62,155 bases of DNA from Microgenomates group bacterium ADurb.Bin219 (GCA_002069945.1 MWCH01000005.1:1-62155); one strand, 5' to 3'; counted from the first letter of the stretch, positions 5,837 to 53,184 are shown. The notes: a model not told the origin generated them from the sequence alone. Numbers and translations are program-made.

Positions 5837-5903
5837 ATTGGAAGTTCGTTACAAGCTATCCCGATCTTAAACGAGATTGCAATATTACGAAATAAAAGAA
5901 AAA

Positions 5904-20159: not shown

Positions 20160-21494
20160 TTGTTTAAGTTTATCAAGGTGAATAAAATTTGGTTAAAACT
20201 GAGAAGTAACGGTCTGGTTGGAAAAATCCGCTTTTTAATTCCTCAAAAAGCGGTTAATTTGCTTATCCATTTGCCTTTGGCCGTCCTGGCCTGTCTTTTT
20301 TATCGGTTTCCATCACGAAAAATGAAAGTTATTGGCATTACGGGAACCGACGGCAAAACGACGACCGTCAATTTGATTTACGAAATAATAAAAGCTTCCG
20401 GAGAAAAAACGGCCGAGGTCTCTACTCTTTCCGCCAGAATCGGCCACGAAGAAATTGATACCGGTTTCCATGTCACGTCTCCGAACTCATGGCAATTGCA
20501 AAAATTACTTAGAAAAATGGTGGATCAAAAGGTAAAATTTGCGGTTTTGGAAGTAACCTCGCACGGGTTAGACCAATTCCGTTTTTGGGGAGTTAATTTT
20601 TTTCTTTCCGTGCTGACGAACGTTACCCATGAACATCTTGATTATCATAAAACCTACGAAAGATATCTGGCGACAAAGACAAAGCTTCTTCTTAAATCAA
20701 AAACAGCGATTATTAACAAAGACGATGAATCATATGATTTTGTCAGCACAAAGTGCAAAGAGCAAAGCATAAAGGTGGTTACCTACGGAATTAAAAACAA
20801 AGCGGATTTTACGCCGGAAAACTTCCGTTTCAAAACTTTGTTGCCCGGGGAATACAATCAATATAATTGTTTGGCGGCAATAGCAGCAACGTCCGAGCTT
20901 CGGGTATCGGAAAAAACGATCAGGAAAACGGTTGGCGATTTTAAGGGAGTTGCCGGCAGGATGGAAGAAATCAAGTTGGGCCAGGATTTTAAGGTTTTTG
21001 TTGATTTTGCCCATACGCCTAATGCCTTAAAACAGGCATTAATAACACTTAAAGAGCAAAACGCAAAAGAGAATAACGGCCACGGAAAGACAATCGTGGT
21101 TTTCGGATGCGCCGGATTAAGGGATAAAACCAAAAGACCTTTGATGGGCGAAATAGCTTGCCGCTTGGCTGATTTTACCGTCTTGACCACCGAAGATCCC
21201 CGGACGGAGAAAGCAACCGATATTATTGAAGAAATCGCTTCCGGCTGTCGGGCCGGCGCCGGAAAAGAAGGAAAAACTTTTTACAAGATTAGCGATCGCC
21301 AGGAAGCCATCAATTTTGCCGTCCGCAAGTTGGCAAGAAAGAGAGATTATGTTCTTATCGCCGGAAAAGGTCATGAAAAATCAATGTGTTTCGATCAGAC
21401 CGAATTTCCCTGGTCGGATAAAGAGGCGGCCAAAAAAGCAATCAATTTATTATTAAAAAACAAAGATTTTAAAAAGGGAGAGAAACAATTATGA
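20160..21494 (+). CDS. murE: UDP-MurNAc-L-Ala-D-Glu:diamino-acid ligase (MurE), short N-terminus
   Basis: VIGITGTDGKTTT P-loop, TNVTHEHLDYH, and TTEDPRTE at the position of the DNPR-type motif. TTG start is uncertain. Confidence 0.8.
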   Translation: MFKFIKVNKIWLKLRSNGLVGKIRFLIPQKAVNLLIHLPLAVLACLFYRFPSRKMKVIGITGTDGKTTTVNLIYEIIKASGEKTAEVSTLSARIGHEEIDTGFHVTSPNSWQLQKLLRKMVDQKVKFAVLEVTSHGLDQFRFWGVNFFLSVLTNVTHEHLDYHKTYERYLATKTKLLLKSKTAIINKDDESYDFVSTKCKEQSIKVVTYGIKNKADFTPENFRFKTLLPGEYNQYNCLAAIAATSELRVSEKTIRKTVGDFKGVAGRMEEIKLGQDFKVFVDFAHTPNALKQALITLKEQNAKENNGHGKTIVVFGCAGLRDKTKRPLMGEIACRLADFTVLTTEDPRTEKATDIIEEIASGCRAGAGKEGKTFYKISDRQEAINFAVRKLARKRDYVLIAGKGHEKSMCFDQTEFPWSDKEAAKKAINLLLKNKDFKKGEKQL

Positions 21495-22321
21495 AAATTT
21501 TCTTTGCCGAATATAAAGCCGATTACCCCCATTATCGTTTTCCTTATCAGGTATGGTTATTGAAAGAGGAAGGTGATTCTCCGGAGAATATTTACGGAGC
21601 CGGTTTTTTGCCGATAAGAAGCCTTCCGGAAATTTATTACCTTAGCCGTTCTTTAAGAATAAATCTAGCCGCTTTTGAACTTTCTTCCGAAAATCGGCGG
21701 ATTTTAAAAAAAACGGATTGCTTTGAATCTGATTTGATTCCCTTGTCCGAATTTGTTTACCAGCCAAAAATCCAGAAGTTTTGTAAAGATTATATGCGGC
21801 AAAGATTTGGAAAAGACAGTATGACGGCTGCCGGAATCAGGAAAATTTTTTCCGGAAATACTTTTAATTATGTTTTTGTTTGGAAAGAAAGAGAAACCCA
21901 AAAGGAAATTGGCTATGCCGTTTGTTTTGTTTCCTCAAAGATTGTTCAATATGCCCACGCGTTTTATGACTTGAAATATTTTCAACAATCTCTCGGCGGC
22001 CGGATGATGTTGGAGGCGGTTAATTGGGCCAAGGAAAGCAAAAAGGAATATCTTTACCTGGGAACGTGTTATGAAGAAAGCGCTCTTTATAAAACGGAGT
22101 TTAAAGGGGTTGAATTTTTTAACGGTTTCAGGTGGAGCGATAACCTGGAAGAACTGAAAGGGCTGATACTGAGAAATAAAAATAGGGAAGCGGGAAGCGG
22201 GGACAAAGAAGGGAAAAAGGAGGAGGAATATACCTTAAAAAATAAAGATTTTTTGGAAAAGTATTATCAGGGCGACTTAAGATCAATTCTTGACCGGTTC
22301 GGAATTAAAGTCAGCTTTTAA
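21491..22321 (+). CDS. ATE/Bpt-like (arginyl/leucyl-tRNA--protein transferase family) GNAT-fold protein
   Basis: GFLPIRS...YYLSRSLRINLAAFELSSENRRILKK and YAHAFYDLKYFQQSLGGRMMLEAVNWAKESKKEYLYLGTCYEESALYKTEFKGVEFFNGFRW. These parallel the ATE_N/ATE_C motifs (GFRRSG, RR, FYDP..SLG, YYYLGYYI..M.YK..F.P.E....W). ATGA overlap with murE. Confidence 0.5.
   Translation: MKIFFAEYKADYPHYRFPYQVWLLKEEGDSPENIYGAGFLPIRSLPEIYYLSRSLRINLAAFELSSENRRILKKTDCFESDLIPLSEFVYQPKIQKFCKDYMRQRFGKDSMTAAGIRKIFSGNTFNYVFVWKERETQKEIGYAVCFVSSKIVQYAHAFYDLKYFQQSLGGRMMLEAVNWAKESKKEYLYLGTCYEESALYKTEFKGVEFFNGFRWSDNLEELKGLILRNKNREAGSGDKEGKKEEEYTLKNKDFLEKYYQGDLRSILDRFGIKVSF
22184..22225. repeat. Heptamer patch (AGGGAAG CGGGAAG CGGGGAC AAAGAAG GGAAAAA GGAGGAG)
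   Basis: Read directly. 42 nt = 14 codons, translated as REAGSGDKEGKKEE. Confidence 0.65.
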
Positions 22322-27074: not shown

Positions 27075-28309
27075 TGATTAAATCATATTTCCATCGGGCA
27101 AGAAGATCGTTGGCCAAGTTTTGGCTTGAGGTTAATCCCCAATTAAGAATTGTCGGGATCACCGGCAGCTTCGGTAAAACCAATACGGCTCGGGCAGTTG
27201 CGTCCGTATTGAGTAAAATGTTTCCGACCGTTCAAACCGATTTAAATCTGGACACGGTTTATAATTTGCCGATAACGATTTTAAAGGTGAAGCCATGGAC
27301 GGAAGCGTTGGTTTTGGAAATGGGGGTTGATCACCTTGGAGAAATGGATTTCCATCTTTCTTTGGTCAAGCCGCAGATCGGGATTGTCACCGGGATTACG
27401 CCGGTTCATAGCGACAAAGAACATTTTGGCTCGCTGGAAAATATTATTAAGGAGAAAGCCAAATTGCTTCAGTCTTTGCCGGCTGACGGGTTGGCGATTT
27501 TAAACTACGAAGACGAAGCGGTTAGAAAGATGGCCGGTTTGACCAAGGCAAAAGTGGTCTTTTACGGCAGGAATCAGGATAAAAAGAACAATTGCGATGT
27601 TTGGGCGGAGACAATTAAAGTTGACCGCGAAGGAACAAGATTTACCATTCGGGAAAAAAACGGAAGGATTAATGTTTCTACCGGCTTAATCGGCGATCAT
27701 TTGGTTGACGGCTGTTTGGCGGCTTACTTGGTCGGCCGCTATTTCCAAATAGAAAAAAATTTGATTATCAATTCTTTCAGCGAGCTAAAACCTTTAAAAG
27801 GAAGGCTGAATTATGAACCGGGTCCGAGGGGAACTTATTTGTTGAACGATGCTTTGCGGTCCAACCCGGCCTCCGCCATGGCCGGATTAACCGTTTTAAC
27901 GGAATTGAAAGGCAAAAGGAAGATTGCTGTTTTGGGAGAGATGGGCGAGCTGGGCGATTTTGAAGAAGAAGGTCATCGTCTGGTCGGCCGGCATTTGGCC
28001 AAGCAAAAAATTGATTTGGCGGTCGGAATCGGACCTTTGACCAAATTTATTTTAACTGAAGCAATCAAAGAGGGAATGGACAAAAAGAAAACTTTTTGGG
28101 CCAAAGACGTAATTCAAGCGGCTGATTTTTTAAGAAAGGAATTGAGAAAAGAGGATTTTGTTTATTTAAAAGGTTCTTTGCTTCGTCATCTGGAAAGAAT
28201 ATTGATTTTATTGAAAGAGGAGAAAGTTGATTGCCGGTTGGTTTCCTGCAATCGCTATTTGCCCTGTTGGACTTGCCCCTATCGGTTTAATAAAGTAAAA
28301 TCTTCCTAA
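27074..28309 (+). CDS. murF: UDP-MurNAc-tripeptide--D-Ala-D-Ala ligase
   Basis: VGITGSFGKTNT, LEMGVDHLGEM, NDALRSNPASAMAGL, LGEMGELG. 1-nt TAATG overlaps on both sides. Confidence 0.8.
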   Translation: MIKSYFHRARRSLAKFWLEVNPQLRIVGITGSFGKTNTARAVASVLSKMFPTVQTDLNLDTVYNLPITILKVKPWTEALVLEMGVDHLGEMDFHLSLVKPQIGIVTGITPVHSDKEHFGSLENIIKEKAKLLQSLPADGLAILNYEDEAVRKMAGLTKAKVVFYGRNQDKKNNCDVWAETIKVDREGTRFTIREKNGRINVSTGLIGDHLVDGCLAAYLVGRYFQIEKNLIINSFSELKPLKGRLNYEPGPRGTYLLNDALRSNPASAMAGLTVLTELKGKRKIAVLGEMGELGDFEEEGHRLVGRHLAKQKIDLAVGIGPLTKFILTEAIKEGMDKKKTFWAKDVIQAADFLRKELRKEDFVYLKGSLLRHLERILILLKEEKVDCRLVSCNRYLPCWTCPYRFNKVKSS

Positions 28310-29343
28310 TGATGGCTTTGTACTTGGGACTATTGCTTTTTTCTTTCAGCCTGACCAGTATTCTGATTGTTCCCTATATCAATCTTCTTTACCGCTTAAA
28401 ATTCCTCAGGAAAATTCAGAAAACCAAAGACTTTTTAGGGAATCGGACTCCGATTTTTGATCGTCTTCACCAGGTGAAGGCGGGAACGCCGGTCGGCGGC
28501 GGCGTTTTAACCATATTTTTGGTTTTTTTTCTTTACTTGATTCTTTTCCCGGCCTTAAAAATTTTAGGTGTTTATATTACAGCACTTTACCCGATCAATG
28601 AAGAATTGAACATTATTTTCTTTACTTTCATTTCCTTTGGTCTGTTGGGACTTTATGATGATTTGATGAAATTTTTCGGCCTGGCAAAGATCGGGGTTTT
28701 TGGCTTAAGAATGAGGCATAAATTTATTATTCAATGGATTTTGGCTTTAATCATCGGCCTTTTGCTTTATCAGAATTTAAAAATTGATTTTATTTACATT
28801 CCTTTTTTGAACGTTATCAATTTAGGCTGGCTTTTTATTCCTTTTTCCGCTTTGGTAATCGTTTCTTTTACCAACGCTTTTAATATTACTGACGGTCTTG
28901 ACGGATTGGCCGCCGGCTTGAATTTAATCTGTCTATTCGCCTTTTGGCTTCTTTCGTATACGACTTTGGACACGCCGCTTTCGGTTTTTTTGGCGCTTTG
29001 GATCGGCTCATTGATTGCTTTTTTATACTTTAATGTTTATCCGGCCAGAATATTTTTGGGCGACGGCGGCGCTTTGTCCTTTGGTGCCACCATGGCGGTT
29101 GTCGGTTTATTGATCGGCAAATTGGCTCCCTTGATAGTTATCGGCGGAATTTTTGTCATAGAAGCTTTTTCAAGCATGGTTCAAATTTTGGCCAAAAAGT
29201 TTTTAGGCAGGAAAATTTTTAAGGTCGCTCCTTTTCATCTCTGGCTTCAAAATGAGGGTTGGGAAGAACCAAAAATTGTCATGCGCGCCTGGCTGGCCGG
29301 AATTATTTTGGCAATTTTCGGAATTTGGCTGGCGGTTATTTAG
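28309..29343 (+). CDS. mraY: Phospho-N-acetylmuramoyl-pentapeptide transferase
   Basis: NAFNITDGLDGLA, VYPARIFLGDGGALSFG. About 10 TM segments. Confidence 0.9.
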   Translation: MMALYLGLLLFSFSLTSILIVPYINLLYRLKFLRKIQKTKDFLGNRTPIFDRLHQVKAGTPVGGGVLTIFLVFFLYLILFPALKILGVYITALYPINEELNIIFFTFISFGLLGLYDDLMKFFGLAKIGVFGLRMRHKFIIQWILALIIGLLLYQNLKIDFIYIPFLNVINLGWLFIPFSALVIVSFTNAFNITDGLDGLAAGLNLICLFAFWLLSYTTLDTPLSVFLALWIGSLIAFLYFNVYPARIFLGDGGALSFGATMAVVGLLIGKLAPLIVIGGIFVIEAFSSMVQILAKKFLGRKIFKVAPFHLWLQNEGWEEPKIVMRAWLAGIILAIFGIWLAVI

Positions 29344-29375
29344 AGATTGGATATTAGAAACGAGAGATGATAGAA
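29341..29375. repeat. Heptamer patch (TAGAGAT TGGATAT TAGAAAC GAGAGAT GATAGAA) across the mraY stop and the next start
   Basis: Read directly. TAGAGATTGG is identical to 31951..31960. Confidence 0.6.
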
Positions 29376-30077
29376 AAATCAGAAGTTTTGGAAAGACTTT
29401 ATTTTGAATATACCCATTTATTTTTGGGCGGTAAAGCCGTTCGTTGCCCTTATTGGTCAAACGACAAAAAGAATTTAATCCCCGGCCCTTTTAAAGGCAA
29501 GGGAACACCGAGGCAAATTATCGAGGCTACGATCAAGAGGGCTTTGGATTTGGGTTTGGATTTGGAGAAGATGTCTTCCGCCGAGATCCGAAGTTTTATG
29601 GTCCGGGAAAAAATCGGGGTTGATTGCTCCGGTTTTGTCTATCATTTGGCGAATGGTCTTGATAAAGAAAAAGGCGGTTCGGGTATCTTGGAAAAAGTGG
29701 CGGGCATTAACGGAAACGGACCTCTTAGGGTAAACGCCTTTTGCCTAACCAATGATAGAAATTCGCTGCCGGTTGAATCTGTCGCCGAAATAAGAATAGG
29801 CGATTTTATCCGCCTTAACGCCGGAAAACACATTGCGATTGTTTTAAGAATTAATAAAGATCGCCAAAAAACAATCAAGGAAGTGATTTATGCCCACTCT
29901 GCATTTTTTACAAAAACGACCGGTGTTCATACTGCCAAGTTTTTAGTTAAAGAAATTTCGGCGGGATTGGAGAAACAGTTGTGGTTTGAAAAAGACCGGC
30001 AGGGAAAGGACTATTTTTCCGCTAGCTTCAATAAACAAACCGGAGACGGAATTAGAAGATTAAAAATCTGGGCTTAA
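29367..30077 (+). CDS. Putative NlpC/P60-like cysteine peptidase, no signal peptide
   Basis: GVDCSGFVYHLANG (catalytic Cys context) and GDFIRLNAGKHIAIVL...VIYAHS (His region). Assignment is by motif only. Confidence 0.4.
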   Translation: MIEKSEVLERLYFEYTHLFLGGKAVRCPYWSNDKKNLIPGPFKGKGTPRQIIEATIKRALDLGLDLEKMSSAEIRSFMVREKIGVDCSGFVYHLANGLDKEKGGSGILEKVAGINGNGPLRVNAFCLTNDRNSLPVESVAEIRIGDFIRLNAGKHIAIVLRINKDRQKTIKEVIYAHSAFFTKTTGVHTAKFLVKEISAGLEKQLWFEKDRQGKDYFSASFNKQTGDGIRRLKIWA

Positions 30078-30191
30078 CGGAAGTGCAAAACTATCCTGAC
30101 CACAAAGTGTCTGATTTTTCCAAACGAAGATTTTAAGCAAGGACTGTTAACAAGCAAAAAAGTTTGAGAATATTTAGACAGGATAGCGCGG

Positions 30192-30824
30192 TTAGGCTTT
30201 AGAGATTTCGGCCTTCGTTTCTGGCGACTTAAAGACTCCGTAGGATTGCTGAAAATAGTTAAAAACAGCATTCCTTAATTTTTCCCAAAGTTTGCCTTGA
30301 TCATTGGCGTTTGGTAGATTTCCAAGGATTTTTTCCCTGATTGTACTTTCTTCTTCTCCGGATAATTTTTTATCTTCTTCTTTTCCTTTTTTTATTATTT
30401 TTCCGCTTTTAAGACATTCTTCAAGGCTAAATATTGGCAAAACTTCCTCTTCGTTCGCCGAATAAATTCGGTTTCTTATTGAAACCGACAAACCATCCCA
30501 GATATTTTCGACAGTCTCTTGAGGTAGTTTGGTGAGCCGAGTATTAAATTTCTTATATATTCTTTGAAGTTCTGGTATTTGTTGTTCAGCAATATCTTCA
30601 ATATATTTACTAACAGATTGGCCAAAAGAGTCTAGTGTTTGCGACAAATCAATCGTTTGAAGAAAGAAATCCGGGTTTTCTCTTTGAGTTTTAAAGCTAA
30701 TAAAATCCAGTCCTTCAATCAAAATCTCAGGAGGAACGACTAACATTTCCCTAAGTGCTTGTCTTACCAAATTTCTAGTAGAAACTGATGTTATTTCAAC
30801 AAGAGTTGGCAGATGCTCACTCAT
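30192..30824 (-). CDS. Hypothetical protein (210 aa), translationally coupled to the LysW-like ORF
   Basis: Long ORF with no family I recognise. Its ATG overlaps the TGA of 30821..30979 (ATGA). Confidence 0.6.
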   Translation of the reverse strand: MSEHLPTLVEITSVSTRNLVRQALREMLVVPPEILIEGLDFISFKTQRENPDFFLQTIDLSQTLDSFGQSVSKYIEDIAEQQIPELQRIYKKFNTRLTKLPQETVENIWDGLSVSIRNRIYSANEEEVLPIFSLEECLKSGKIIKKGKEEDKKLSGEEESTIREKILGNLPNANDQGKLWEKLRNAVFNYFQQSYGVFKSPETKAEISKA

Positions 30825-30979
30825 TTTTCTTCCTCAATTAAGGAAACAGAAAGCGGCTCCAGACTGGTGATTTCAATTTCCGCACCGCAATTTTCACACT
30901 CGATTATTTCGCCGACTTTCGGGTCTTTTTCTTTAATTTCTACCGGCTCATGACAATCCGGACAAATTACTTTTTTCAT
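30821..30979 (-). CDS. LysW/ArgW-like zinc-ribbon protein (52 aa), absent from the ORF track
   Basis: Hand translation: MKKVICPDCHEPVEIKEKDPKVGEIIECENCGAEIEITSLEPLSVSLIEEEK. GGAGGAGG Shine-Dalgarno 4 nt upstream. Pattern CPxC-x13-GE-x3-CxxCGAExE...LxPL is as in LysW (from memory). Confidence 0.6.
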   Translation of the reverse strand: MKKVICPDCHEPVEIKEKDPKVGEIIECENCGAEIEITSLEPLSVSLIEEEK

Positions 30980-31012
30980 TCTTCCTCCTCCTTACTAATT
31001 GTAAGATTAATG

Positions 31013-31018
31013 TATAAT
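31013..31018 (+). promoter_or_regulatory. Putative -10 box (TATAAT) in the divergent intergenic region
   Basis: TATAAT lies 11 nt upstream of ATG 31030. No Shine-Dalgarno in between, implying a very short leader. Confidence 0.4.
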
Positions 31019-31029
31019 TTATCCTAAAG

Positions 31030-31953
31030 ATGATTAATCTTCAAGAGGATGTTTCCCAGAGAGGAATTTGGCGGTATCACCGCGATTTATTACCTATCGG
31101 AGAAGAGTCCCGTTTAAGCCTGGGGGAAGGAGCGACCCCAACTACACAAATTGACGGAATTTTTTTCAAAAGGGAGGATCTAAACCCGAACGGCTCGCTT
31201 AAAGATCGGGGAATGGCCTTTCAAGTTAGTTCTGCTTACGGCTCAGGCGAAAAGAATTTGGTCATTTCTTCTTCGGGGAATGCCGCGATTTCCGCTTCCG
31301 CCTATTGCCGCTTGGCGGATATCAATCTTACCGTTTTTGTTGCCGAAAGCATTAACCAAAAAAAACTGGCAATGGTAAAAAATTCAAAAGCAAAAGTTAA
31401 AATCGGCAAAAGACCGGTTAGCGAAGCGATTAAATGGGCAAAAAGAAACAATTTTCCCAATTTAAGACCGTCAACCGATCCGGCGGGCAGTATCGGCTAT
31501 CAAACAATCGCGTATGAACTTTATCGGGAGCTGGGCCGAATTGAAGAGCTTTTTTTGCCGGTTTCTTCGGGAACAGCCCTAAAAGGAATTGCTGGCGGAT
31601 TTAAAAGACTGGGTTTTTTACCCAGGATTTATGCTTGTCAGTCAACAAGAACTTTTTCTTTGGCCAAAAACTTTGATGCGGATTTTGTTGTTTCCAAGAC
31701 CAGTCTGGCGGATGCGCTGGTCGCAAAAATTGTTCCGGACAGAGATCAGATTTTAAATATAATAAGAGAGTCCGGCGGCGGCGGTTGGGTAATTTCTGAT
31801 GAAGAGATTGTCAAAGCCGGCGATTGGTTGGAGAAAAACGGAATTTTAACTTCGGCTGAAGGTGCCTTGGCTTTGGCGGCGGTTTGGAAAGCAAAAGCCA
31901 AGGAGCAAAAACTCGGGAAAACCGTTTGTCTGTTAACGGGAAAAAAATATTAG
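31030..31953 (+). CDS. Fold-type II PLP-dependent enzyme, threonine synthase-like (short form)
   Basis: EDLNPNGSLKDRGMAFQVS (PLP-lysine motif of the ThrC type) and ISSSGNAAISASAYC. Confidence 0.7.
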   Translation: MINLQEDVSQRGIWRYHRDLLPIGEESRLSLGEGATPTTQIDGIFFKREDLNPNGSLKDRGMAFQVSSAYGSGEKNLVISSSGNAAISASAYCRLADINLTVFVAESINQKKLAMVKNSKAKVKIGKRPVSEAIKWAKRNNFPNLRPSTDPAGSIGYQTIAYELYRELGRIEELFLPVSSGTALKGIAGGFKRLGFLPRIYACQSTRTFSLAKNFDADFVVSKTSLADALVAKIVPDRDQILNIIRESGGGGWVISDEEIVKAGDWLEKNGILTSAEGALALAAVWKAKAKEQKLGKTVCLLTGKKY

Positions 31954-31965
31954 AGATTGGAAAAA

Positions 31966-33342
31966 ATGGAAAAAATAAATTTTTTGGAAAAGATTAAAGA
32001 ACCGATTTTTTATATTACCAATGATGTAGCCAAAGGAATCGGCCTGGAAAATCTTTTACCCGACTATCACATTATCTGTCTTGATGATCATCCTTTGGTT
32101 GATTATTTGGAAAAGGCCGGTGTTAAAGTATTTTGCCTGGAAAGAGTTTTAAAGCAGAAGAACCGGATTTTCAGGAGTACCGGTAAAATTATTGACCATC
32201 CTTTGGTTTTGGAATACATTAAAAAAGAAAGTTCGGGAGAGACGCCCCAAATTCTTTTTTTTAAGCCTTCGTCAAAAATAGACTTAATTTGCAAAAAATT
32301 CGGCTTTAACCGCCTGGGAAACCCGAGCCCTTTAAACCGGATTTTTGAAGATAAAATCAGTTTTTACGATCTGTGCCGGCAAGAAGGTTTGCCGGTTCCC
32401 GAGGGAGAATTGACGAAATTGGCGCAAGCAGAAAACTTTGAGGAAACGGCAAAAAAATATGGCCTTCCTTTTGTTGTCCAATTCGGTCGGGGATGGGCGG
32501 GGAGCACTACTTTTTTTGTCAATAACGAAAACGAATTTGCGGAATTGAGAAGAAAATATCCCGATATTCCGGTAAAAATTACCGAATTTATCAAGGGAAT
32601 TACATTATTAAACAATGCCTGTATTTTTGCCGGCAAAGTCTTGACCAGTCCCCCGGCAATGCAGATTCCCTCTTTCCCGAATTGGACTTCTTTGGCGGCG
32701 GCGACTTGCGGTCGGCAGTGGCCGGCGGAGATTGGTCCGGCCAAAACAAAGGAGATTGACGCGCTAACCGAAAAAGTCGGTAGATTGATGGCCGAAAAGG
32801 GCTACCGGGGCTTTTTCGGGCTTGATTTTCTTTTGGAAGACAAGACCGGCCGGATTTTTCTTTCGGAAAATAATGCCCGGCTGACCGCTTCCGCGCCTTT
32901 TTTTACTAAACTGGAAATAGAAGCTTTAAATAACCGGAAAGCGGAAAGATTGCCTTTAACGGCTTTTCATTTGCTGTCGTTTTTGGATCTTAAAGAGGCG
33001 GAAAGTTTATCCTATCTGAAGACAGAAGTTTGCGGCAGCGAAATTGTTTTCCGAAACAAGGAAAAGTCAGCGCTTTTGGTTAAGGGCTCTTTTGCCCCCG
33101 GCGTTTATACTTTTTCTCAAGAAAAATTGACCCTTAAAAGAAAAGATTATTCCTTTTTTCCTTTGGCCGACAAAGAAGTTTGGCTGACCGCGGCCGCTTC
33201 GGGCCGATTAATCAATCCGGAAGTAGAAATCGGCAGAATTATTCTAAACCGGAAGATTTTGGCCGACAGGTCCATTAATGATCCTTCCGTTTTTGTAATG
33301 GTCAAACAGGTTAAAAGTTTATTAATGTTGGAAAAATGTTGA
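31966..33342 (+). CDS. ATP-grasp family ligase (458 aa), substrate unknown
   Basis: FEDKISFYDLCRQEGLPVP, LPFVVQFGRGWAGSTTFFV, EFIKG, GYRGFFGLDFLLEDKTGRIFLSENNARLT. Stop overlaps the ftsW start by 7 nt. ATG 31966 preferred over TTG 31957. Confidence 0.7.
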   Translation: MEKINFLEKIKEPIFYITNDVAKGIGLENLLPDYHIICLDDHPLVDYLEKAGVKVFCLERVLKQKNRIFRSTGKIIDHPLVLEYIKKESSGETPQILFFKPSSKIDLICKKFGFNRLGNPSPLNRIFEDKISFYDLCRQEGLPVPEGELTKLAQAENFEETAKKYGLPFVVQFGRGWAGSTTFFVNNENEFAELRRKYPDIPVKITEFIKGITLLNNACIFAGKVLTSPPAMQIPSFPNWTSLAAATCGRQWPAEIGPAKTKEIDALTEKVGRLMAEKGYRGFFGLDFLLEDKTGRIFLSENNARLTASAPFFTKLEIEALNNRKAERLPLTAFHLLSFLDLKEAESLSYLKTEVCGSEIVFRNKEKSALLVKGSFAPGVYTFSQEKLTLKRKDYSFFPLADKEVWLTAAASGRLINPEVEIGRIILNRKILADRSINDPSVFVMVKQVKSLLMLEKC

Positions 33343-34442
33343 AGCCTTTTTCCGGAAAAGCCAAAATTGACCGGGGATTGTTGACCGCGGTTATTTTGTT
33401 GGGTTTTTTCGGAATTCTTATGGTTTTTGATTCCTCTTCGGTAATGGCAGCCCAAAATTTTAACGACAAATTCCATTTTGTTAAATTGCATGGGGTTTGG
33501 GCTTTCTTGGGGATGATAATTATGCTTTTAGCTTCGTTGATAGACTTTCGTTTTTGGAAAAAAACCGCGGTAATTTTTTTTGCCGCTTCGCTGGCAAGCT
33601 TGGTTTTGGTTTTAATTCCCGGAATCGGCTTAAAGCTCTTGGGAGGTAGAAGATGGTTAGGGATCGGCGAGTTGACCTTTCAGCCGTCCGAAGTCGCCAA
33701 ATTGGCGACGATAATTTATCTGGCTTCATTTTTGGAAAAAAAGAAGAGTTTTTTTCACTTTTCCATTATTTTGGCGGTAGTTGCCGGATTATTGATGTTG
33801 GAGCCGGATTTGGGAACAACCGTAATCTTGATTTTTTCTTCATTGGTGGTTTATTTTCTTTCCGGCGCCAGTTTAAAAGAATTTTTTTTCCTGGCCCTGG
33901 CCGGGATTGCCGCCGGATCTTTACTGATTTTGATTTCCCCTTACCGTATGGCCAGAATGAAGGTTTTTTTAAATCCCGATTTGGATCCCCAGGGCTCATC
34001 GTATCATTTAAGGCAGATTCTTTTGGCTTTGGGTTCGGGCGGATTTTTTGGCCGGGGGATTGGTCAGTCTAGACAAAAATTTCTTTTTTTGCCGGAAACG
34101 GCGACCGATTCGATTTTCGCGGTTATTGCCGAGGAAACCGGTTTTGCCGGCGCTTTTTTGGTTCTCGGCTGTTTTTTTTACATTATTTCCCGAAGCTTGA
34201 GAATTTCGCGTTTTTCCACGGATAAATTCGGTCAGCTTTTGGCGGGCGGAATTACCGGATTGTTTTTTATTCAGGCTTTTTTGAATTTAGGCTCAATGGT
34301 TTCTTTGGTCCCTTTAACCGGGGTTCCTTTGCCGTTGATTTCTTACGGTCGCTCCTCAATGGTGGTGACTTTTTTTTATTTCGGGATTTTGCTTAATATT
34401 TCCCGAAACGTGTTAATTGTTAAAAAGGAGAAAACACGATGA
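33336..34442 (+). CDS. ftsW: SEDS-family peptidoglycan polymerase FtsW
   Basis: FQPSEVAKL, EPDLGT, LPETATDSIFAVIAEE, PLISYGRSS. Positioned before murG. Confidence 0.85.
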   Translation: MLKPFSGKAKIDRGLLTAVILLGFFGILMVFDSSSVMAAQNFNDKFHFVKLHGVWAFLGMIIMLLASLIDFRFWKKTAVIFFAASLASLVLVLIPGIGLKLLGGRRWLGIGELTFQPSEVAKLATIIYLASFLEKKKSFFHFSIILAVVAGLLMLEPDLGTTVILIFSSLVVYFLSGASLKEFFFLALAGIAAGSLLILISPYRMARMKVFLNPDLDPQGSSYHLRQILLALGSGGFFGRGIGQSRQKFLFLPETATDSIFAVIAEETGFAGAFLVLGCFFYIISRSLRISRFSTDKFGQLLAGGITGLFFIQAFLNLGSMVSLVPLTGVPLPLISYGRSSMVVTFFYFGILLNISRNVLIVKKEKTR

Positions 34443-35596
34443 GAAAAATTGTTATTACCGGCGGCCACTTGACCCCCGCGATTGCGACAATTCAGGAGTT
34501 GAAAAGCAAAAAAGAAAATCCCTGGAAGATTTATTACTTTGGTCGTAAGGTTTCTTTGGAGGGAACCAAAATCGCTTCCGTTGAGGCTAAAATTATTCCC
34601 GGTTTGGGCGTAATTTTTGTCCCCATCAATCCCGGCCGCTGGCAAAGGCGTTTTTCCGTTTATACACTGGCCAGCTTATTAAGGGTTCCTTGGGGTTTTT
34701 TTCAGGCAACAGTAAATTTGTTCAGGATTAAACCCGATCTGATTTTATCTTTTGGCAGTTACGTTTCCACCCCGGTCGTTATTGCCGGCTGGTTAATGGG
34801 AATACCCATCGTCAGTCACGAGCAAACACCGACTGCCGGTTTGGCCAACGCAATTAATTCCCGCTTTTCGGTCAAAATTGCCGTAACTTTTAAGGAAAGC
34901 TTAAATAATTTTCCTTCGGGAAAAGCGGTTTTTACCGGCAATCCCTTAAGAAAAGAAATTTTTATTGACCGGACAGACGAATTTACCCAAAAGATAAAAA
35001 AAATGATGGCCCGAAAGAACCTTCCTTTACTTTATATAACCGGAGGTAATCAGGGTTCGGCGCCTATTAACAAATTTATCGCCGATCATCTTCCCTGCTT
35101 TCTTGATAATTTTATTATTCTTCACCAAACCGGTAGTTTGGACTATCCCAATTTAATTAAATTAAAAATGAAATTAATAAACAATCTTCGGGAAAATTAT
35201 TTTCTTAAAGATTTTATTTCTTTAAAGGAAATCGGCTGGGTTTTTAAAAATGCTCTTCTTGTTGTTTCCCGTTCCGGAGCCAATATTTGTTATGAGCTGG
35301 GTTGCTTGGGGAAGCCGGCTATTTTAATACCTTTGCCTTTTTCTTTTCGCAACGAACAGTTTAAAAATGCCGCCAGGCTTAAGGATCTTGGTTTGGCGGA
35401 AATACTGGAAGAAGACCGGTTAAATCTTAAAAACTTTAATTTAGCCATTTCCCGATTAACGGATAAAGATTTTTTGGCAAAGAATTTAACCAAATTAGCC
35501 GATTTTTATCCTAGAGACGGAGCGGAAAAATTAGTGAAAATAATTGAGGAGATTTATAAAGAAAAAATTAAAAAAACTAACGGATTAAAAGATTAA
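34439..35596 (+). CDS. murG: UDP-GlcNAc:lipid I GlcNAc transferase
   Basis: ITGGHLTPAIA, TGGNQGS, SRSGANICYELGCLGKPAILIPLP. ATGA overlap with ftsW. Confidence 0.9.
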   Translation: MRKIVITGGHLTPAIATIQELKSKKENPWKIYYFGRKVSLEGTKIASVEAKIIPGLGVIFVPINPGRWQRRFSVYTLASLLRVPWGFFQATVNLFRIKPDLILSFGSYVSTPVVIAGWLMGIPIVSHEQTPTAGLANAINSRFSVKIAVTFKESLNNFPSGKAVFTGNPLRKEIFIDRTDEFTQKIKKMMARKNLPLLYITGGNQGSAPINKFIADHLPCFLDNFIILHQTGSLDYPNLIKLKMKLINNLRENYFLKDFISLKEIGWVFKNALLVVSRSGANICYELGCLGKPAILIPLPFSFRNEQFKNAARLKDLGLAEILEEDRLNLKNFNLAISRLTDKDFLAKNLTKLADFYPRDGAEKLVKIIEEIYKEKIKKTNGLKD

Positions 35597-38663: not shown

Positions 38664-41573
38664 ATGTTTAAACCGGTTGATTTAAAAATTGATTTTCCGG
38701 CAATGGAGCGCCGGATATTAGACTGGTGGTATTCTTCAGGATTGGTCAATAAATATCTTCACCGCAACGATTCTTCAAAGAAAAAATTTTCTTTTTTTGA
38801 CGGTCCGATTACGGCCAATAATCCCATGGGTGTTCACCACGCTTGGGGCCGAACCTATAAAGATCTTTGGCAGAGATATAAAAATATGAACGGATTTCGC
38901 CAAAGGTTTCAAAACGGATTTGACAACCAGGGCCTTTGGGTAGAGGTTGAGGTGGAAAAAGAAAAAGGCTTCCGCTCCAAAAAAGAAATTGAAAAGTACG
39001 GAATAGAAAAATTTGTTAACGATTGCCGCGAAAGAACCTTAAAGTGCGCCAAAGAGCAGACTGAGCAATCAAAGAGGTTGGGCTATTTTATGGATTGGGA
39101 GAACTCCTATTACACCTTAAGCGAAGAAAACAACTACATGATTTGGCATTTTTTAAAAAAATGCTGGCAGACCGATTGGCAGGGTGGTCCGGGATTATAT
39201 AAAGGTCGCGATTCGGTTCCCTGGTGCCCCCGTTGCGGAACCGCCATTTCCCAACACGAAATTTTAACCGAAGAATATAAAGAATTAACCCACGAGTCGG
39301 TTTATTTCCGTTTGCCTTTGGTTGATCGGGAAAATGAATACTTTCTGGTTTGGACAACCACCCCCTGGACAATTCCGGCCAATGTCGGCTTGGCCGTCAA
39401 TCCGAAATTGGAATATTGGTTAGTTGAAGGAGAAGACAAAAAAAGATATTGGCTTGTCGCCGATTTGGCAAAAACGGTTTTCGGCGAAAAAGCAAAACCA
39501 GTTAAAAAAACAAAAGGGAATTCTTTGGTCGGTTTAAAGTATCTTGGTCCTTTTGACGAACTTTTGGCGGTTCAGGAAGCCAAAAAAGAAAAACCGGAAA
39601 CTTTTCATACGGTTTTGGCTTCCGAAGAGCTGGTAACGGCGACCGAAGGGACCGGCATCGTTCATCTTGCTACCGGCTGCGGTCAGGAAGATTTCGCTTT
39701 AGGTAAGGAAAATAATTTGCCGGTAATCGCGGCAATTGACGAATCGGCCAATTATTTTGAGAATTTCGGGGATTTGTCCGGCAAGAACGCCAAAAAAGAT
39801 CCGGATTTAATTTTAAAACACACCTTGCTGAAAGACTTCCTTTTTAAAATTACACCTTACACCCACCGCTATCCGACTTGCTGGAGATGTAAAACGGAAT
39901 TGGTTTGGCGGGTAGTTGACGAATGGTATATTGCCATGGATACGGTTCGGGAAAAAATGATGGCGATAACCAAAAAAATTAATTGGCTGCCGGCCTGGGG
40001 GAAAGATCAAGAGCTGGATTGGCTTAAAAATATGCACGATTGGTTGATTTCCAAAAAAAGATATTGGGGTCTGGCTTTACCGATTTGGGAATGCCAATGC
40101 GGATATTTTGAAGTGATTGGCTCAAAAGAAGAGTTAAAGGAAAAAGCGGTTGAGGGTTGGAAGAAATTTCAGGGTCATACGCCTCACCGGCCTTGGATTG
40201 ATGAAGTAAAAATTCTTTGTCCAAAATGCGGGGAAAAAGCCTCGCGAATAAAAGATGTCGGAAACCCCTGGCTGGACGCGGGGATTATCTCTTTCTCAAC
40301 CCTGGTTGCTCCGGAAACCAAAAAAGTGAGCTACTTAACCGATAAAAAATATTGGCAAGAGTGGTATCCGGCCGATTTTATTACCGAAAGTTTTCCTGGC
40401 CAGTTCAAAAACTGGTTTTACTCTCTTTTGGCGATGGCAACGGTTTTGGAAAATGAAGCGCCTTTTAAAAACGTTTTGGCTTACGCTTTGGTCAGGGACG
40501 AAAAAGGGGAAGAGATGCATAAAAGCAAGGGAAACGCGATTTGGTTTGATGATGCGGCGGAAAAGATGGGGGTTGACGTGATGCGCTGGATGTATGTTTT
40601 ACAAAATCCGGAAGCAAATCTTAATTTCGGTTTTCAGGTTGCGGACGAAGTCAGGCGCCGTTTCCACCTGATGATTTGGAATGTCTATAACTTTTTTGTC
40701 ACTTATGCGAATATTGCGGAAACTCAAAACCTAAATTTTAAAACTAATAACGAAAATTTAAAACTTAAATCTGTTTTGGACAAGTGGATTATTTCTAAAC
40801 TTAACGGATTAATAAAAATTGTTACCGAAGCTTTGGATAAATACGATCCGTTTTTAGCCAGCCATGCCATTGAGGAGTTTGTCGTTAACGATCTTTCCGC
40901 CTGGTATGTCCGCCGTTCGCGGGATCGGGTTTCTCCTTCTTCGGCCGACCGCCAAGACCAGGAAGATTGTTTCCGGACGCTGTTTCTCGTTTTAAATAAT
41001 TTGGTCAAGATTTTGGCGCCCTTTACTCCTTTTATTGCGGAAGAGATTTATCAGAATCTCGCAACGAAAAAAGAAGGAGAATTAAAAAGTGTCCATCTGG
41101 AAGGCTGGCCCAGTCCGGAAGAAAATTTGATTGATTTGGAATTGGAAGAAAAAATGGTTTTGGCAAGGAAAATTTGCGAGATGGGCCACGCCGCCAGAAA
41201 AAGTGCCGGCATTAAAGTTCGTCAGCCTCTTTCAAAGTTATCTATCAAGAATCTTCCTTTAAATATTGACGAGGTGGCAGACTTAATCAAAGACGAGTTG
41301 AACGTCAAAGAATTGCTGGGCAATATCGGGAAAGGGGAGTTAACGGTTGAGTTGGATACCGAGATTACCGCCGGACTTAAAGAAGAAGGAGAAGCCAGGG
41401 ATATTATCAGGCAAATCCAAGAGGCCAGAAAAAATGTTGGTTGTCGGCTGGACGAAAAAGTTGAAGTATATTTTCCTAATTGGCCGGAAAAATTTACCGA
41501 ATTAATCAAAAAAGAAACCTTGGCCATTAAAATTGAGAAAAAAGAAACCTTGGAAATTATCAGAAACCAATGA
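38664..41573 (+). CDS. ileS: Isoleucine--tRNA ligase
   Basis: ANNPMGVHHAWGRTYKD (HIGH-region variant), EMHKSKGN (KMSKS), WCPRCGTAIS, CWRCKTELV, GFDNQGLWVEVEVEK. Confidence 0.85.
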   Translation: MFKPVDLKIDFPAMERRILDWWYSSGLVNKYLHRNDSSKKKFSFFDGPITANNPMGVHHAWGRTYKDLWQRYKNMNGFRQRFQNGFDNQGLWVEVEVEKEKGFRSKKEIEKYGIEKFVNDCRERTLKCAKEQTEQSKRLGYFMDWENSYYTLSEENNYMIWHFLKKCWQTDWQGGPGLYKGRDSVPWCPRCGTAISQHEILTEEYKELTHESVYFRLPLVDRENEYFLVWTTTPWTIPANVGLAVNPKLEYWLVEGEDKKRYWLVADLAKTVFGEKAKPVKKTKGNSLVGLKYLGPFDELLAVQEAKKEKPETFHTVLASEELVTATEGTGIVHLATGCGQEDFALGKENNLPVIAAIDESANYFENFGDLSGKNAKKDPDLILKHTLLKDFLFKITPYTHRYPTCWRCKTELVWRVVDEWYIAMDTVREKMMAITKKINWLPAWGKDQELDWLKNMHDWLISKKRYWGLALPIWECQCGYFEVIGSKEELKEKAVEGWKKFQGHTPHRPWIDEVKILCPKCGEKASRIKDVGNPWLDAGIISFSTLVAPETKKVSYLTDKKYWQEWYPADFITESFPGQFKNWFYSLLAMATVLENEAPFKNVLAYALVRDEKGEEMHKSKGNAIWFDDAAEKMGVDVMRWMYVLQNPEANLNFGFQVADEVRRRFHLMIWNVYNFFVTYANIAETQNLNFKTNNENLKLKSVLDKWIISKLNGLIKIVTEALDKYDPFLASHAIEEFVVNDLSAWYVRRSRDRVSPSSADRQDQEDCFRTLFLVLNNLVKILAPFTPFIAEEIYQNLATKKEGELKSVHLEGWPSPEENLIDLELEEKMVLARKICEMGHAARKSAGIKVRQPLSKLSIKNLPLNIDEVADLIKDELNVKELLGNIGKGELTVELDTEITAGLKEEGEARDIIRQIQEARKNVGCRLDEKVEVYFPNWPEKFTELIKKETLAIKIEKKETLEIIRNQ
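40719..40767. repeat. Heptamer patch inside ileS (GAAACTC AAAACCT AAATTTT AAAACTA ATAACGA AAATTTA AAACTTA)
   Basis: Read directly. Translated as ETQNLNFKTNNENLKL. Confidence 0.65.
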
Positions 41574-42655
41574 AAGTTTTCCGGAATTTTGACTGGTTAT
41601 TTTTTCTGGTCATTTTTTTGCTTCTTACCTTTGGCTCCGTCACCATTTTAAGCGTTAATCCCGGGATTTTCAGCGATCAAATAGCCTATGCTCTTCTTTC
41701 GCTTGGAATTTTTTTTCTGTTTTCCTACCTAGACTTAAAAATATTTGAAAGTTTTGCCAAAGTTTTATATTTTGCTTCTTTGTTTTTCTTGACAACACCA
41801 TTGTTTTTAGGTGTTTTATCAAGGGGAGCGACCCGGTGGGTGGAAATTGCCGGAAAAACCTTTCAGCCTTCCGAGGCAGCAAAACTTTTTTTAATTGTTT
41901 TTTTGGCCCGCTATTGGGCTTACCGCCGGGTGAATCTCAGTAGTTTCTCGAGAGCCTTGTTTTTAATTTTGCCTCAGTTTTTTTTGGTTTTCAGACAGCC
42001 GGATTTGGGTAGCTCCCTGGTAATTATGGCGATTTTTTTCGGAATGATTTTATTAACCGAGATCCGGTGGCGTCAGATTTTTGTTCTTTTGGCCGGTTTT
42101 TTGCTTATTTTACCGATAAGCTGGTTTTTTCTTCACGATTATCAGAAAGAAAGAATTACCCATTTTTTAAATCCTTCCCTAGATCCCTTGGGAGCCGGTT
42201 ATAACGTCATCCAGTCTATTTTAACGGTCGGCTCAGGAGGTTTGACGGGGAAGGGCTTGGGAAAGGGTTCCCAAAGCCAGCTGGCATTTTTACCGGAAAA
42301 ACACACCGACTTTATTTTCAGTTCTTTCGCGGAAGCTTTTGGTTTTTTGGGATCTGTTTTGGTTATCTTTTTGTATTTTTTACTTTGCCGTCGGATAATT
42401 TACGCGATGAGAAAAACTGAAAGTGATTTTTCCAAATATCTTTGCGCCGGAGTTTTTTGGCTGGTTTTCTTTCAGTCAAGCGTTAATATCGGCATGAATT
42501 TGGGAATTTTGCCGATAACAGGTATTACTTTACCTTTGTTTTCCTACGGAGGCAGCTCCTTGCTTTCCACGATGGCCTGTTTGGGCTTGGTGGAAAACGT
42601 CATCCATTCCAATTTTGGCAAAGAGGCAATTGAAATCGGATTTAAAAGAGACTAG
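41570..42655 (+). CDS. rodA: SEDS-family protein (RodA/FtsW paralog)
   Basis: FQPSEAAKL, QPDLGS, LPEKHTDFIFSSFAE, PLFSYGGSS. ATGA overlap with ileS. No adjacent class B PBP. Confidence 0.7.
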   Translation: MKVFRNFDWLFFLVIFLLLTFGSVTILSVNPGIFSDQIAYALLSLGIFFLFSYLDLKIFESFAKVLYFASLFFLTTPLFLGVLSRGATRWVEIAGKTFQPSEAAKLFLIVFLARYWAYRRVNLSSFSRALFLILPQFFLVFRQPDLGSSLVIMAIFFGMILLTEIRWRQIFVLLAGFLLILPISWFFLHDYQKERITHFLNPSLDPLGAGYNVIQSILTVGSGGLTGKGLGKGSQSQLAFLPEKHTDFIFSSFAEAFGFLGSVLVIFLYFLLCRRIIYAMRKTESDFSKYLCAGVFWLVFFQSSVNIGMNLGILPITGITLPLFSYGGSSLLSTMACLGLVENVIHSNFGKEAIEIGFKRD

Positions 42656-48050: not shown

Positions 48051-48071
48051 AATTTAAAGTTAAGACAAACA

Positions 48072-48086
48072 ATTGACAATGTCAAT
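48072..48086. promoter_or_regulatory. 15-bp perfect palindrome ATTGACA-A-TGTCAAT in a divergent intergenic region, overlapping TATAAT (48086..48091)
   Basis: Read directly. Lies between the 848-aa gene (minus) and the methyltransferase gene (plus). Confidence 0.4.
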
Positions 48087-48106
48087 ATAATTCAATTTAA
48101 AAACGA

Positions 48107-48841: not shown

Positions 48842-48921
48842 AACTTTTTTAATTTTTCTTCTTAACCCTTAACACAAAAAAGATTTGCCTTTGGTTTGAA
48901 TTAAAGCTAAAATGGCTTTAA

Positions 48922-49938: not shown

Positions 49939-49953
49939 TCAAAATAAACAATA

Positions 49954-52942: not shown

Positions 52943-53184
52943 CAAAACCAATAGTTAGACTTTAAATAAGAAATTTTTATCAAAATTAATATTTAATACC
53001 TATTTGATTACAAAGAGTGAAAGGACTATTTAATTTATTTCTTGACACGGTGTCGTCAACTTCTCTTCTTGCCAGAAGCAGGATAAGATTGTCCTCTAAA
53101 GGAAGAATATTTATTAATTATTGCCGGATAAGCTTTAAACTTTTCACCATTAACCGTCTTTTTAAAATATCGACCGAAAAGATA

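Follow-up and report, generated by a model that had tools for sequence, protein, structure and literature searches.

The window analyzed here is a stretch of 62,155 nucleotides (nt) from Microgenomates group bacterium ADurb.Bin219 (GCA_002069945.1 MWCH01000005.1:1-62155). In its division and cell wall (dcw) cluster, the interval between mraY and ftsW, where murD is expected, is taken up by other genes. Four of these are conserved and encode a divergent NlpC/P60-type candidate cysteine amidase, a zinc ribbon of 52 amino acids (aa) homologous to the carrier protein LysW, a ThrC-like pyridoxal phosphate (PLP) enzyme, and an ATP-grasp ligase. Together, they form a module wired into the cell wall and division operon of many ultra-small bacteria of the candidate phyla radiation (CPR), alongside or instead of MurD. 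The module genes probably prepare a building block of the wall peptide by a new route. Our preferred but tentative reading, which we consider possible rather than probable, is a carrier-protein pathway that would prepare or deliver the amino acid at position 2 of the stem peptide, D-glutamate (D-Glu).

Conservation of the Gene Set in CPR Genomes

Related loci were collected as ±10 kb around each match, which resulted in 88 distinct ATP-grasp loci from CPR genomes (single loci are cited by number, L). The organism labels of many of these metagenome-assembled genomes are unreliable, and many carry the title "uncultured Gammaproteobacteria" despite CPR-like gene content. The PLP enzyme gene was located directly upstream of the ATP-grasp gene in 74 of the 88 loci, and the LysW-like gene was also present in 66 of those 74. 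The gene directly downstream of the ATP-grasp gene was ftsW in 58 of 88. Because the same gene set occurs in dozens of independent genomes, the module is far beyond chance. An earlier note on this DNA had proposed such a module from the window, and its gene order does recur in related CPR genomes. Where the gap between the LysW-like and the PLP enzyme gene was larger, as in some Parcubacteria, it held only AT-rich DNA or a non-conserved small membrane open reading frame (ORF).

Layout of the Interval Between mraY and ftsW

According to the ORF table, five ORFs occupy the interval. The features and their borders are the following:

28309..29343, plus strand: mraY, upstream border of the slot where murD is expected
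29367..30077, plus strand: P236, divergent NlpC/P60-type candidate cysteine amidase, 236 aa (invariant Cys/His, profile-profile comparison)
30192..30824, minus strand: 210-aa ORF, an ORFan (ORF table)
30821..30979, minus strand: LysW-homologous zinc ribbon, 52 aa, putative carrier (PF21344)
30980..31029, no strand: divergent spacer, 50 nt (direct sequence reading)
31030..31953, plus strand: ThrC-like fold-type II PLP enzyme, 307 aa, containing NPNGSLKDRGM (PF00291)
31957..33342, plus strand: ATP-grasp ligase, start at 31957 (TTG, 461 aa) or 31966 (ATG, 458 aa) (PF02655, PF02786)
33336..34442, plus strand: ftsW, downstream partner of the ATP-grasp gene (ORF table)

No MurD-like ORF was found in the whole 62-kb window, where phmmer with two MurD queries returned MurF, MurE, and MurC only. 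This confirmed the murD-free slot described in the earlier note, and the ORF table agreed with the coordinates given there. The finer details of that description also held. The 52-aa and 210-aa ORFs are coupled by ATGA ("tcat" on the plus strand, 30821-30824), and the stop of the ATP-grasp gene at 33342 overlaps the start of ftsW at 33336 by 7 nt. The 50-nt spacer carries a TATAAT box at 31013-31018, 11 nt ahead of the ATG of the PLP enzyme gene. A full sigma-70 site in the spacer was not listed by a consensus scan. On its minus strand, the spacer has a strong Shine-Dalgarno sequence, AGGAGGAGG, for the 52-aa gene. Rfam gave no riboswitch or other RNA within 28000-35000, nor in 11 related loci. 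Reading of the translations revealed no signal peptides or membrane segments in any of the module proteins, which implies action on cytoplasmic precursors.

The 210-aa ORF does not belong to the module. It had no homolog in any related locus examined, and in relatives with 93% identity (L134-L136) the segment of about 740 bp at 30078-30820 is absent and the P236 and LysW-like genes are direct neighbors. The ORF, which the earlier note had listed together with the 52-aa ORF, is an insertion specific to the strain, and we rejected it as a member of the pathway.

The LysW-Like Protein and Its Invariant Tail

The 52-aa protein scored 40 bits against Pfam PF21344 (Zn_ribbon_LysW), above the gathering score of 27, and stayed below the cut-offs of the LysW equivalog models (34.7 versus 53.2 for TIGR01206 and 31.4 versus 75 for NF041070). 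Of the earlier assignment to LysW/ArgW-type carriers, the zinc ribbon family was retained, but the equivalog assignment failed, and the protein lacks a C-terminal Glu, ending in ...IEEEK-COOH. The ORF is conserved, with 63 distinct orthologs. It has two CxxC motifs, and almost every ortholog retains the two Cys pairs, the first motif being CxxxC in a few. The terminus ..EK was present in 62 of the 63, nearly always as [LIV]-x-E-E-K; the exception ends in ..EEKG.

A word-indexed protein search gave just 2 near-identical proteins, whereas an exhaustive search, which covered 1.84 billion representatives, returned 234 relatives with E ≤ 1e-3. Of the 150 best of these superfamily representatives, about 55 have the terminus -E[EDQ]K and 10 the terminus -DWGE, and the true LysW tails (DWGE) form a separate set. 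The -EEK proteins thus constitute a large group, sister to true LysW, whose terminus is different and strictly conserved. A fusion of ThrC with a zinc ribbon of the PRK05638 type was considered as the source of the 52-aa protein and was rejected, since the protein did not match PRK05638.

LysW/ArgW is known to carry glutamate, also in archaea, in line with the name of NF041070. The only established role of LysW-family tails is entry into the active sites of the ATP-grasp ligase and of later enzymes. An invariant terminal residue on a flexible acidic tail is to be expected of a group that enters active sites and is hard to explain for a merely structural zinc ribbon. Recognizable genes for lysX/argX, lysZ, lysY, lysJ, or lysK were found neither in the window, of which the translations were read, nor within ±10 kb of related loci.

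The LysW-like gene was antisense to the operon in 66 of 66 loci. In a further locus, L114 (3980-6700), from a metagenome-assembled genome labelled Gemmatimonadetes, it is co-directional with murD and the PLP enzyme gene and overlaps both, and the tail is -EIEK. This order, murD–lysW-like–PLP, was the sole co-directional case seen.

The PLP Enzyme

The 307-aa protein matched PF00291 with 162.8 bits. Its best NCBIfam matches were threonine synthase models under their cut-offs (PRK08329, 143.8 versus 358; TIGR00260, 65.3 versus 167.1), and ThrC also gave the best PDB matches (E 1e-16), among which racemases were found as well. The family and PDB matches support the fold-II enzyme of ThrC type named in the earlier note. 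The PLP lysine, K58 in GS-x-KDR, and the Asn loop are invariant across 77 orthologs, and K58, R60, S80, G83, N84, K112, R146, S148, E163, S180, G186, S275, and E277 are at least 95% identical.

Alignment of the 77 orthologs to Aquifex ThrC revealed that the positions T88, R160, and N188 are occupied by A, G/A/S, and S, respectively. These positions we take to be ligands of the phosphate of O-phosphohomoserine, as in Thermus ThrC structures. In terms of motifs, GNT is changed to GNA, the Arg of NPxRxEGQK to G/A/S, and the Asn of the glycine loop to Ser. K112 and R146 are new invariant basic residues relative to ThrC. The protein is therefore best described as a predicted ThrC-like enzyme that is not a canonical threonine synthase.

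The ATP-Grasp Ligase

Above the cut-offs, the ligase matched the ATP-grasp Pfam families PF02655 (25.4) and PF02786 (24.6). The score against NF005096 (PRK06524, "biotin carboxylase") was 109 bits at a cut-off of 684. An AlphaFold2 (AF2) model with a predicted local distance difference test (pLDDT) score of 93.7 had PurK, biotin carboxylase, PurT, and PurD as top Foldseek matches (template modeling score ~0.6, 12-16% identity, E 1e-18). Pfam and Foldseek support the earlier identification of the product of 31966..33342 as an ATP-grasp protein. The suggested precedent of LysX/ArgX-type loading did not hold for it, since there was no match to RimK, LysX, or ArgX models at E ≤ 1 in Pfam or NCBIfam. 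PylC gave a weak match of 22.7 bits.

E304, N306, and R308, which make up the Mg/phosphate motif E-x-N-x-R, are invariant in the family. Glu296 of E. coli biotin carboxylase is catalytic and activates bicarbonate/biotin; its position is held by an invariant Ser312 in the ATP-grasp protein. Considering the Pfam matches, the sub-threshold score for NF005096, the lack of RimK, LysX, or ArgX matches, the distant structures, and the exchange of Glu296 for Ser, we predict an acyl-phosphate-forming ligase of the E-x-N-x-R class that constitutes a family of its own.

A set of 5.8 billion proteins contained 182 homologs, most of them unnamed and the rest called "hypothetical" or "ATP-grasp domain-containing"; those with names were from Microgenomates/Patescibacteria (CPR). 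Relatives were present in 172 GTDB species representatives. In Shapirobacteria-type loci (L046-L084), the ligase is about 90 aa shorter and its C-terminal beta-rich domain is missing.

P236 and the Parcubacterial D-Aminoacylase

Pfam gave no match for the P236 protein of the window. We found 50 homologs, most of them unnamed; the named ones are called "hypothetical protein" and one is annotated as NlpC/P60 (PF00877). G84, D86, C87, S88, G89, H155, Y175, H177, and H188 are invariant, and the family pattern is G-x-DCSG...KH...YAHS...GxH. The candidate catalytic residues are Cys87, His155, and His177, plus His188. By hhalign, P236 aligned with bona fide PF00877 proteins from the same position in Parcubacteria with 93.8% probability, in the His region only. 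The AF2 model was of high confidence (pLDDT 95.5), and Foldseek found no PDB fold match at E < 0.001, the best being the papain-like IdeS (E 0.03). A sequence profile search of the PDB gave no significant match. The label "NlpC/P60-like" used in the earlier note consequently stood on the hhalign result and the invariant Cys/His residues, and Pfam was silent on the window protein. The gene was located directly upstream of the LysW-like gene in 38 loci. We regard P236 as a candidate cytoplasmic, highly divergent cysteine amidase of NlpC/P60 type.

In Parcubacteria-type loci (L116:993-3486, L110:908-3824, L126, and L112), a D-aminoacylase and a bona fide NlpC/P60 protein, both without signal peptide, are encoded between mraY and murD. 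The D-aminoacylase scored 261 bits against the D-aminoacylase of PDB entry 1RJQ and 233 bits against the N-acyl-D-glutamate deacylase 3GIP, a similarity that speaks for a D-amino acid, D-Glu in particular. Together, the two proteins look like a cytoplasmic system for the release or salvage of D-Glu.

Relation of the Module to MurD

MurD was encoded directly upstream of the LysW-like gene in 24 loci. The Mur ligase of these loci scored 153-247 bits against TIGR01087, which was the best model every time. The best PDB match was Streptococcus agalactiae MurD (227 bits), and the equivalents of E. coli Thr321 and Lys348, which we take to be functional residues of that enzyme, are kept. The N-terminal domain is divergent and defines a MurD subfamily with the motifs FVPQSWRLY, FYSLTRLYLE, and HDF, the last where E. 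coli MurD has D-T-R; the N-terminal 110 residues did not align to any PDB MurD. A scan for these N-terminal motifs found the subfamily in only 50 GTDB species genomes (L022:7499-8908, L037:6936-8462, and 47 further loci, L085-L133), many of which, among those checked, also carry the ATP-grasp gene. The LysW-like gene nearly always followed the subfamily MurD directly, even when the PLP enzyme and ATP-grasp genes were on another contig of the same assembly. The gene directly upstream of MurD in these genomes encodes NlpC/P60, which is the relative place of P236.

In Gottesmanbacteria-labelled loci, the order is NlpC/P60-like, MurD, LysW-like (minus), PLP enzyme, and ATP-grasp, as a unit apart from the other dcw genes. 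In Parcubacteria-type loci, it is mraY, D-aminoacylase, NlpC/P60, MurD, LysW-like (minus), PLP enzyme, ATP-grasp, ftsW, murG, murC, and murB. The order NlpC/P60–MurD–LysW-like–PLP–ATP-grasp(–ftsW) was found in Gottesmanbacteria-, Parcubacteria-, and Chloroflexota-labelled genomes and may well be the ancestral one. We take the four conserved genes of the slot, from the candidate amidase to the ATP-grasp ligase, to be one old functional module of CPR wall gene clusters, and MurD would be its ancestral neighbor and working partner.

At this position, murD is missing in the lineage of the window and in about 40 related loci (within ~10 kb). Shapirobacteria-type dcw clusters (L046-L084) are without murD, murF, and ddl, and often without murB. 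Since murF, ddl, and murB are likewise missing from many clusters without MurD, a gene not seen in the cluster may still be present elsewhere in the genome. A glutamate racemase motif was not found in the related loci, which is uninformative since these loci are a small part of each genome.

We compared the ATP-grasp sequences adjacent to MurD (25) with those from MurD-less loci (41). They have 32 conserved positions in common and one fixed difference. From this, the ligase most likely has the same job with or without MurD, a job that would not simply be that of MurD. The suggestion that the module compensates for the missing murD was weakened by this lack of a shift and by the 24 loci in which MurD adjoins the LysW-like gene.

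A Possible Carrier-Protein Pathway to D-Glutamate

MurD adds D-glutamate at position 2 of the stem peptide. From the genes, their family-level identities, their conservation, the MurD and ftsW linkage, and the invariant tail, we infer a pathway of which every chemical step, the cargo, and the D-Glu link are put here conditionally. The LysW-like protein would receive an amino acid, of which glutamate is the most plausible, on its flexible, invariant -EEK tail, attached by the ATP-grasp ligase at the cost of ATP either to the terminal carboxylate in LysW style or to the epsilon-amine of the lysine. The ThrC-like PLP enzyme would convert the tethered or the incoming amino acid, for example in its configuration or side chain. 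The NlpC/P60-type amidase would then free the D-configured product for the UDP-N-acetylmuramyl (UDP-MurNAc) peptide, with help from the D-aminoacylase in Parcubacteria.

The carrier role is favored by the true LysW homology together with the invariant C-terminal tail, and the link to D-Glu by the MurD linkage, the position of NlpC/P60 beside MurD, and the Parcubacterial D-aminoacylase. PLP chemistry requires a free alpha-amine, so that a tether between the side-chain carboxylate and the lysine epsilon-amine is favored. PylC and Aslfm are ATP-grasp enzymes that acylate a lysine epsilon-amine with the same polarity as such a side-chain tether. In bacteria without glutamate racemase, an alternative ATP-dependent route to D-Glu via MurD2/MurL is known (PMC8788868).

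Several points weigh against this pathway. A PLP aldimine is impossible with an acylated alpha-amine, which makes LysW-style linkage and PLP chemistry on one residue hard to combine. The D-aminoacylase would fit N-acylation instead, at odds with the side-chain tether. The ligase lies outside the LysX/ArgX/RimK family that loads LysW, and as the tail ends in Lys and not in Glu, gamma-carboxyl loading in LysW style may not be assumed. Transcription of the putative carrier gene against the operon, without exception in the 66 loci, is unusual for a pathway subunit. The long representatives included tandem zinc ribbons only, with no case in which the LysW-like domain is fused to a PLP, ATP-grasp, or Mur-ligase domain. 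The two hydrolases would be equally well explained by muropeptide salvage. Finally, the proposed user of the product was not seen in the lineage of the window, which has no MurD nearby. The wider claim, that much of the CPR uses a previously unknown, protein-tethered, ATP-driven route to supply or even attach the D-glutamate of its peptidoglycan, in some lineages without any MurD, we hold with considerable doubt.

Alternative Explanations

It is unlikely, but deserves consideration, that the PLP enzyme and the ATP-grasp ligase are a stem-peptide tailoring pair in the manner of Alr/Ddl/MurF or of E. faecium Aslfm with its racemase, in which the former would make a D- or non-protein amino acid and the latter would ligate it directly to a nucleotide or lipid precursor. 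The ligation might take place on the epsilon-amine of residue 3 or on the alpha-carboxyl of D-Glu, or the ligase might instead make a dipeptide for addition by a Mur ligase. The LysW-like protein would be a substrate mimic or regulator, since its -Glu-Lys-COOH end resembles the -D-iGlu-L-Lys-COOH of UDP-MurNAc-tripeptide. The ATP-grasp gene is indeed the one most tightly tied to ftsW, as seen from the 58 loci and the stop/start overlap in the window, and in some loci (e.g., L021 and L039) the pair ATP-grasp–ftsW is retained without an adjoining PLP enzyme or LysW-like gene. ATP-grasp enzymes acting on lysine epsilon-amines exist, and the weak PylC match is in line with this. The fold-II family of PLP enzymes includes racemases, which were present among the PDB matches, but the enzyme is nearer to ThrC. 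The cluster moreover already has a candidate branch-adding enzyme in the ATE_C-like protein (see below), and for the small protein, with its invariant tail and its strict co-occurrence with the enzymes across phyla, a role as substrate or carrier is a better fit than one as regulator.

Muropeptide salvage appears less likely than such tailoring. CPR bacteria that scavenge from a host would import wall peptides, NlpC/P60 would cut the bond between gamma-D-Glu and the diamino acid, D-aminoacylase would cut L-Ala–D-Glu, and the freed D-Glu would feed MurD, with the other genes processing another piece or re-ligating peptides. NlpC/P60 enzymes typically cleave gamma-D-Glu–Lys/diaminopimelate bonds, and N-acyl-D-Glu deacylases accept L-Xaa-D-Glu, specificities that fit. 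The two hydrolases, both cytoplasmic, are encoded next to murD. Also in favor of salvage is the lack of amino-acid biosynthesis in CPR genomes (PMC7143001). However, salvage accounts for the hydrolases only and leaves the most conserved parts, namely the carrier-like protein, the PLP enzyme, and the ligase, without a function, and P236 is too diverged from wall-peptide NlpC/P60 enzymes for detection by Pfam.

That the ATP-grasp ligase is a non-homologous replacement of MurD, adding the second residue to UDP-MurNAc-L-Ala in lineages like that of the window, we consider quite improbable. It would account for the absence of MurD from the 62-kb window and from the ~10 kb around 40 related loci with dcw clusters that hold many other mur genes, and for the location of the ligase in the murD–ftsW position. 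Nevertheless, the same ligase coexists with an adjacent MurD in 24 loci and has like conserved positions in both settings, and the limited value of an absence from the cluster, pointed out above, applies here as well. Ordinary amino-acid biosynthesis genes, a threonine synthase and a remnant of the LysW pathway placed in the dcw cluster by chance, are suggested by the best database names ("threonine synthase" and "LysW") but are very improbable, given family scores far under all cut-offs, the replaced phosphate ligands of ThrC, the lack of a LysX-type ligase and of recognizable lysZ/Y/J/K-like ORFs in the window or loci, and a dcw position conserved across Microgenomates-, Parcubacteria-, and Chloroflexota-labelled genomes.

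Neighboring Genes in the Window

The flanks of the module are a normal dcw cluster. As seen from the ORF table and translations, the order is mraZ, rsmH, ftsI, murE, an ATE_C-like gene, murC, murB, murA, ddl, murF, mraY, the module, ftsW, murG, an ftsQ-like gene, ftsA, and ftsZ; the identities of MurE, MurC, and MurF were confirmed by NCBIfam. The ATE_C-like gene (21491-22321, plus strand) encodes 276 aa with the fold of arginyl/leucyl-tRNA-protein transferases or Fem-like proteins and keeps its position in almost every Microgenomates-type locus. Its score against arginyltransferase models was 50 bits, far under the cut-off. The product is a candidate aminoacyl-tRNA-dependent enzyme for adding branches to the stem peptide. 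MurE enzymes that add meso-diaminopimelate have the motif DNPR and those that add Lys have D(D/N)P(N/A). The MurE of the window (20160-21494) carries EDPR, by which its specificity for residue 3 is ambiguous.

A second gene of the FtsW/RodA family (41570-42655) lies directly behind ileS, and in several of the loci compared, the ileS–rodA pair likewise comes after the dcw cluster. The G+C content is 0.30-0.32 across 48000-54000 and about 0.40 elsewhere. Genes for glycosyltransferases, methyltransferases, and a flippase are located in this stretch, which may be an acquired surface-polysaccharide island. Two ORFs for glycosyltransferases of family 2 (GT2), at 4-756 and 4847-5836, have an identical stretch of about 33 aa, EEIKNEKLKIKNKDLRLIVIENKENVGFARGNN, and a neighboring ORF pair (also 5877-7208) has a common odd repeat, PPITNHQPPIT / TTNHQPPITNHQP. 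The shared GT2 stretch and the repeat suggest a recent duplication or recombination.

Significance and Comparison with Known Systems

How the stem peptide is assembled in the cytoplasm, by MurC-F with MurI, Alr, and Ddl for the D-amino acids, counts as essentially settled and almost universal. The presence of four to six conserved, unannotated genes as a module at the MurD/FtsW junction of a major bacterial radiation points to a further or alternative step in this assembly. Should the LysW homolog be a carrier, carrier-protein chemistry, so far confined to lysine, arginine, and a few natural products, would extend to cell wall synthesis and would include a new tail chemistry with a terminal Lys. 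It might also give insight into the source of D-glutamate in organisms with almost no amino-acid metabolism. Since the proteins are small and soluble, direct testing in vitro is possible without cultivation of CPR bacteria. The searchable literature contained no paper that links LysW with MurD, peptidoglycan, or CPR, none on this ATP-grasp family, and nothing on PRK06524. In agreement with the earlier note, no described system that combines these parts in this context was found there.

The closest known systems differ from the module in several components. The alternative MurD2/MurL route (Xanthomonas, Micromonospora; PMC8788868) likewise brings D-Glu to position 2 with consumption of ATP and a variant MurD where the usual D-Glu supply is lacking. 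It works without a carrier protein, a PLP enzyme, and an ATP-grasp ligase, all three of which the module has. Alr–Ddl–MurF, and Aslfm with its racemase in Enterococcus faecium, the latter compared by description only, resemble the module in the combination of an amino-acid-converting enzyme and an ATP-grasp ligase for the stem peptide, encoded together with wall genes. They have no carrier-like protein, and their racemases are of fold III or cofactor-free, unlike the ThrC-like enzyme found here.

Two further systems are similar in logic. In the butirosin pathway (BtrI/BtrJ/BtrK/BtrG), an ATP-grasp enzyme loads a carrier with glutamate via the side-chain carboxylate, the alpha-amino-acid end stays free for a PLP enzyme to act on, and the protecting group is taken off by a dedicated enzyme. 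The logic is the same as proposed for the module, but BtrI is a phosphopantetheinyl thioester carrier, the protein families are unrelated, and the pathway belongs to secondary metabolism. The tubulin tyrosination cycle relies on the ATP-grasp tubulin tyrosine ligase (TTL) and the papain-like carboxypeptidase vasohibin. It has in common with the module an acidic -EE-X tail, an ATP-grasp enzyme able to re-add the last residue, and a peptidase of papain/transglutaminase fold able to remove it. This cycle is eukaryotic and regulatory and has no PLP enzyme, so that the analogy is mechanistic only.

LysW/ArgW with LysX/ArgX (Thermus, Sulfolobus, and Thermococcus; amino-group carrier protein (AmCP) pathways of Streptomyces) have the zinc ribbon domain PF21344 and the acidic flexible C-terminal tail in common with the module, and there, too, the carrier is encoded beside an ATP-grasp ligase, a PLP enzyme, and a hydrolase that potentially releases the product. 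In contrast, the LysW tail is -EDWGE with the gamma-carboxylate of a terminal Glu, which the -EEK tail does not have. LysW systems use a ligase of the LysX/RimK family and the LysZ/LysY kinase and reductase, neither of which is part of the module, and they employ a fold-I aminotransferase and an M20 metallopeptidase in place of the fold-II ThrC-like enzyme and the candidate cysteine amidase. The setting of the module in the dcw cluster next to MurD is likewise different. By its equivalog scores, its tail, and the lack of a LysX-type ligase and of lysZYJK partners, the module would resemble an amino-group carrier system in its working without being a member. We regard it as a variant of carrier-protein-assisted amino-acid chemistry with a real chance of representing a new step in the synthesis of peptidoglycan precursors.

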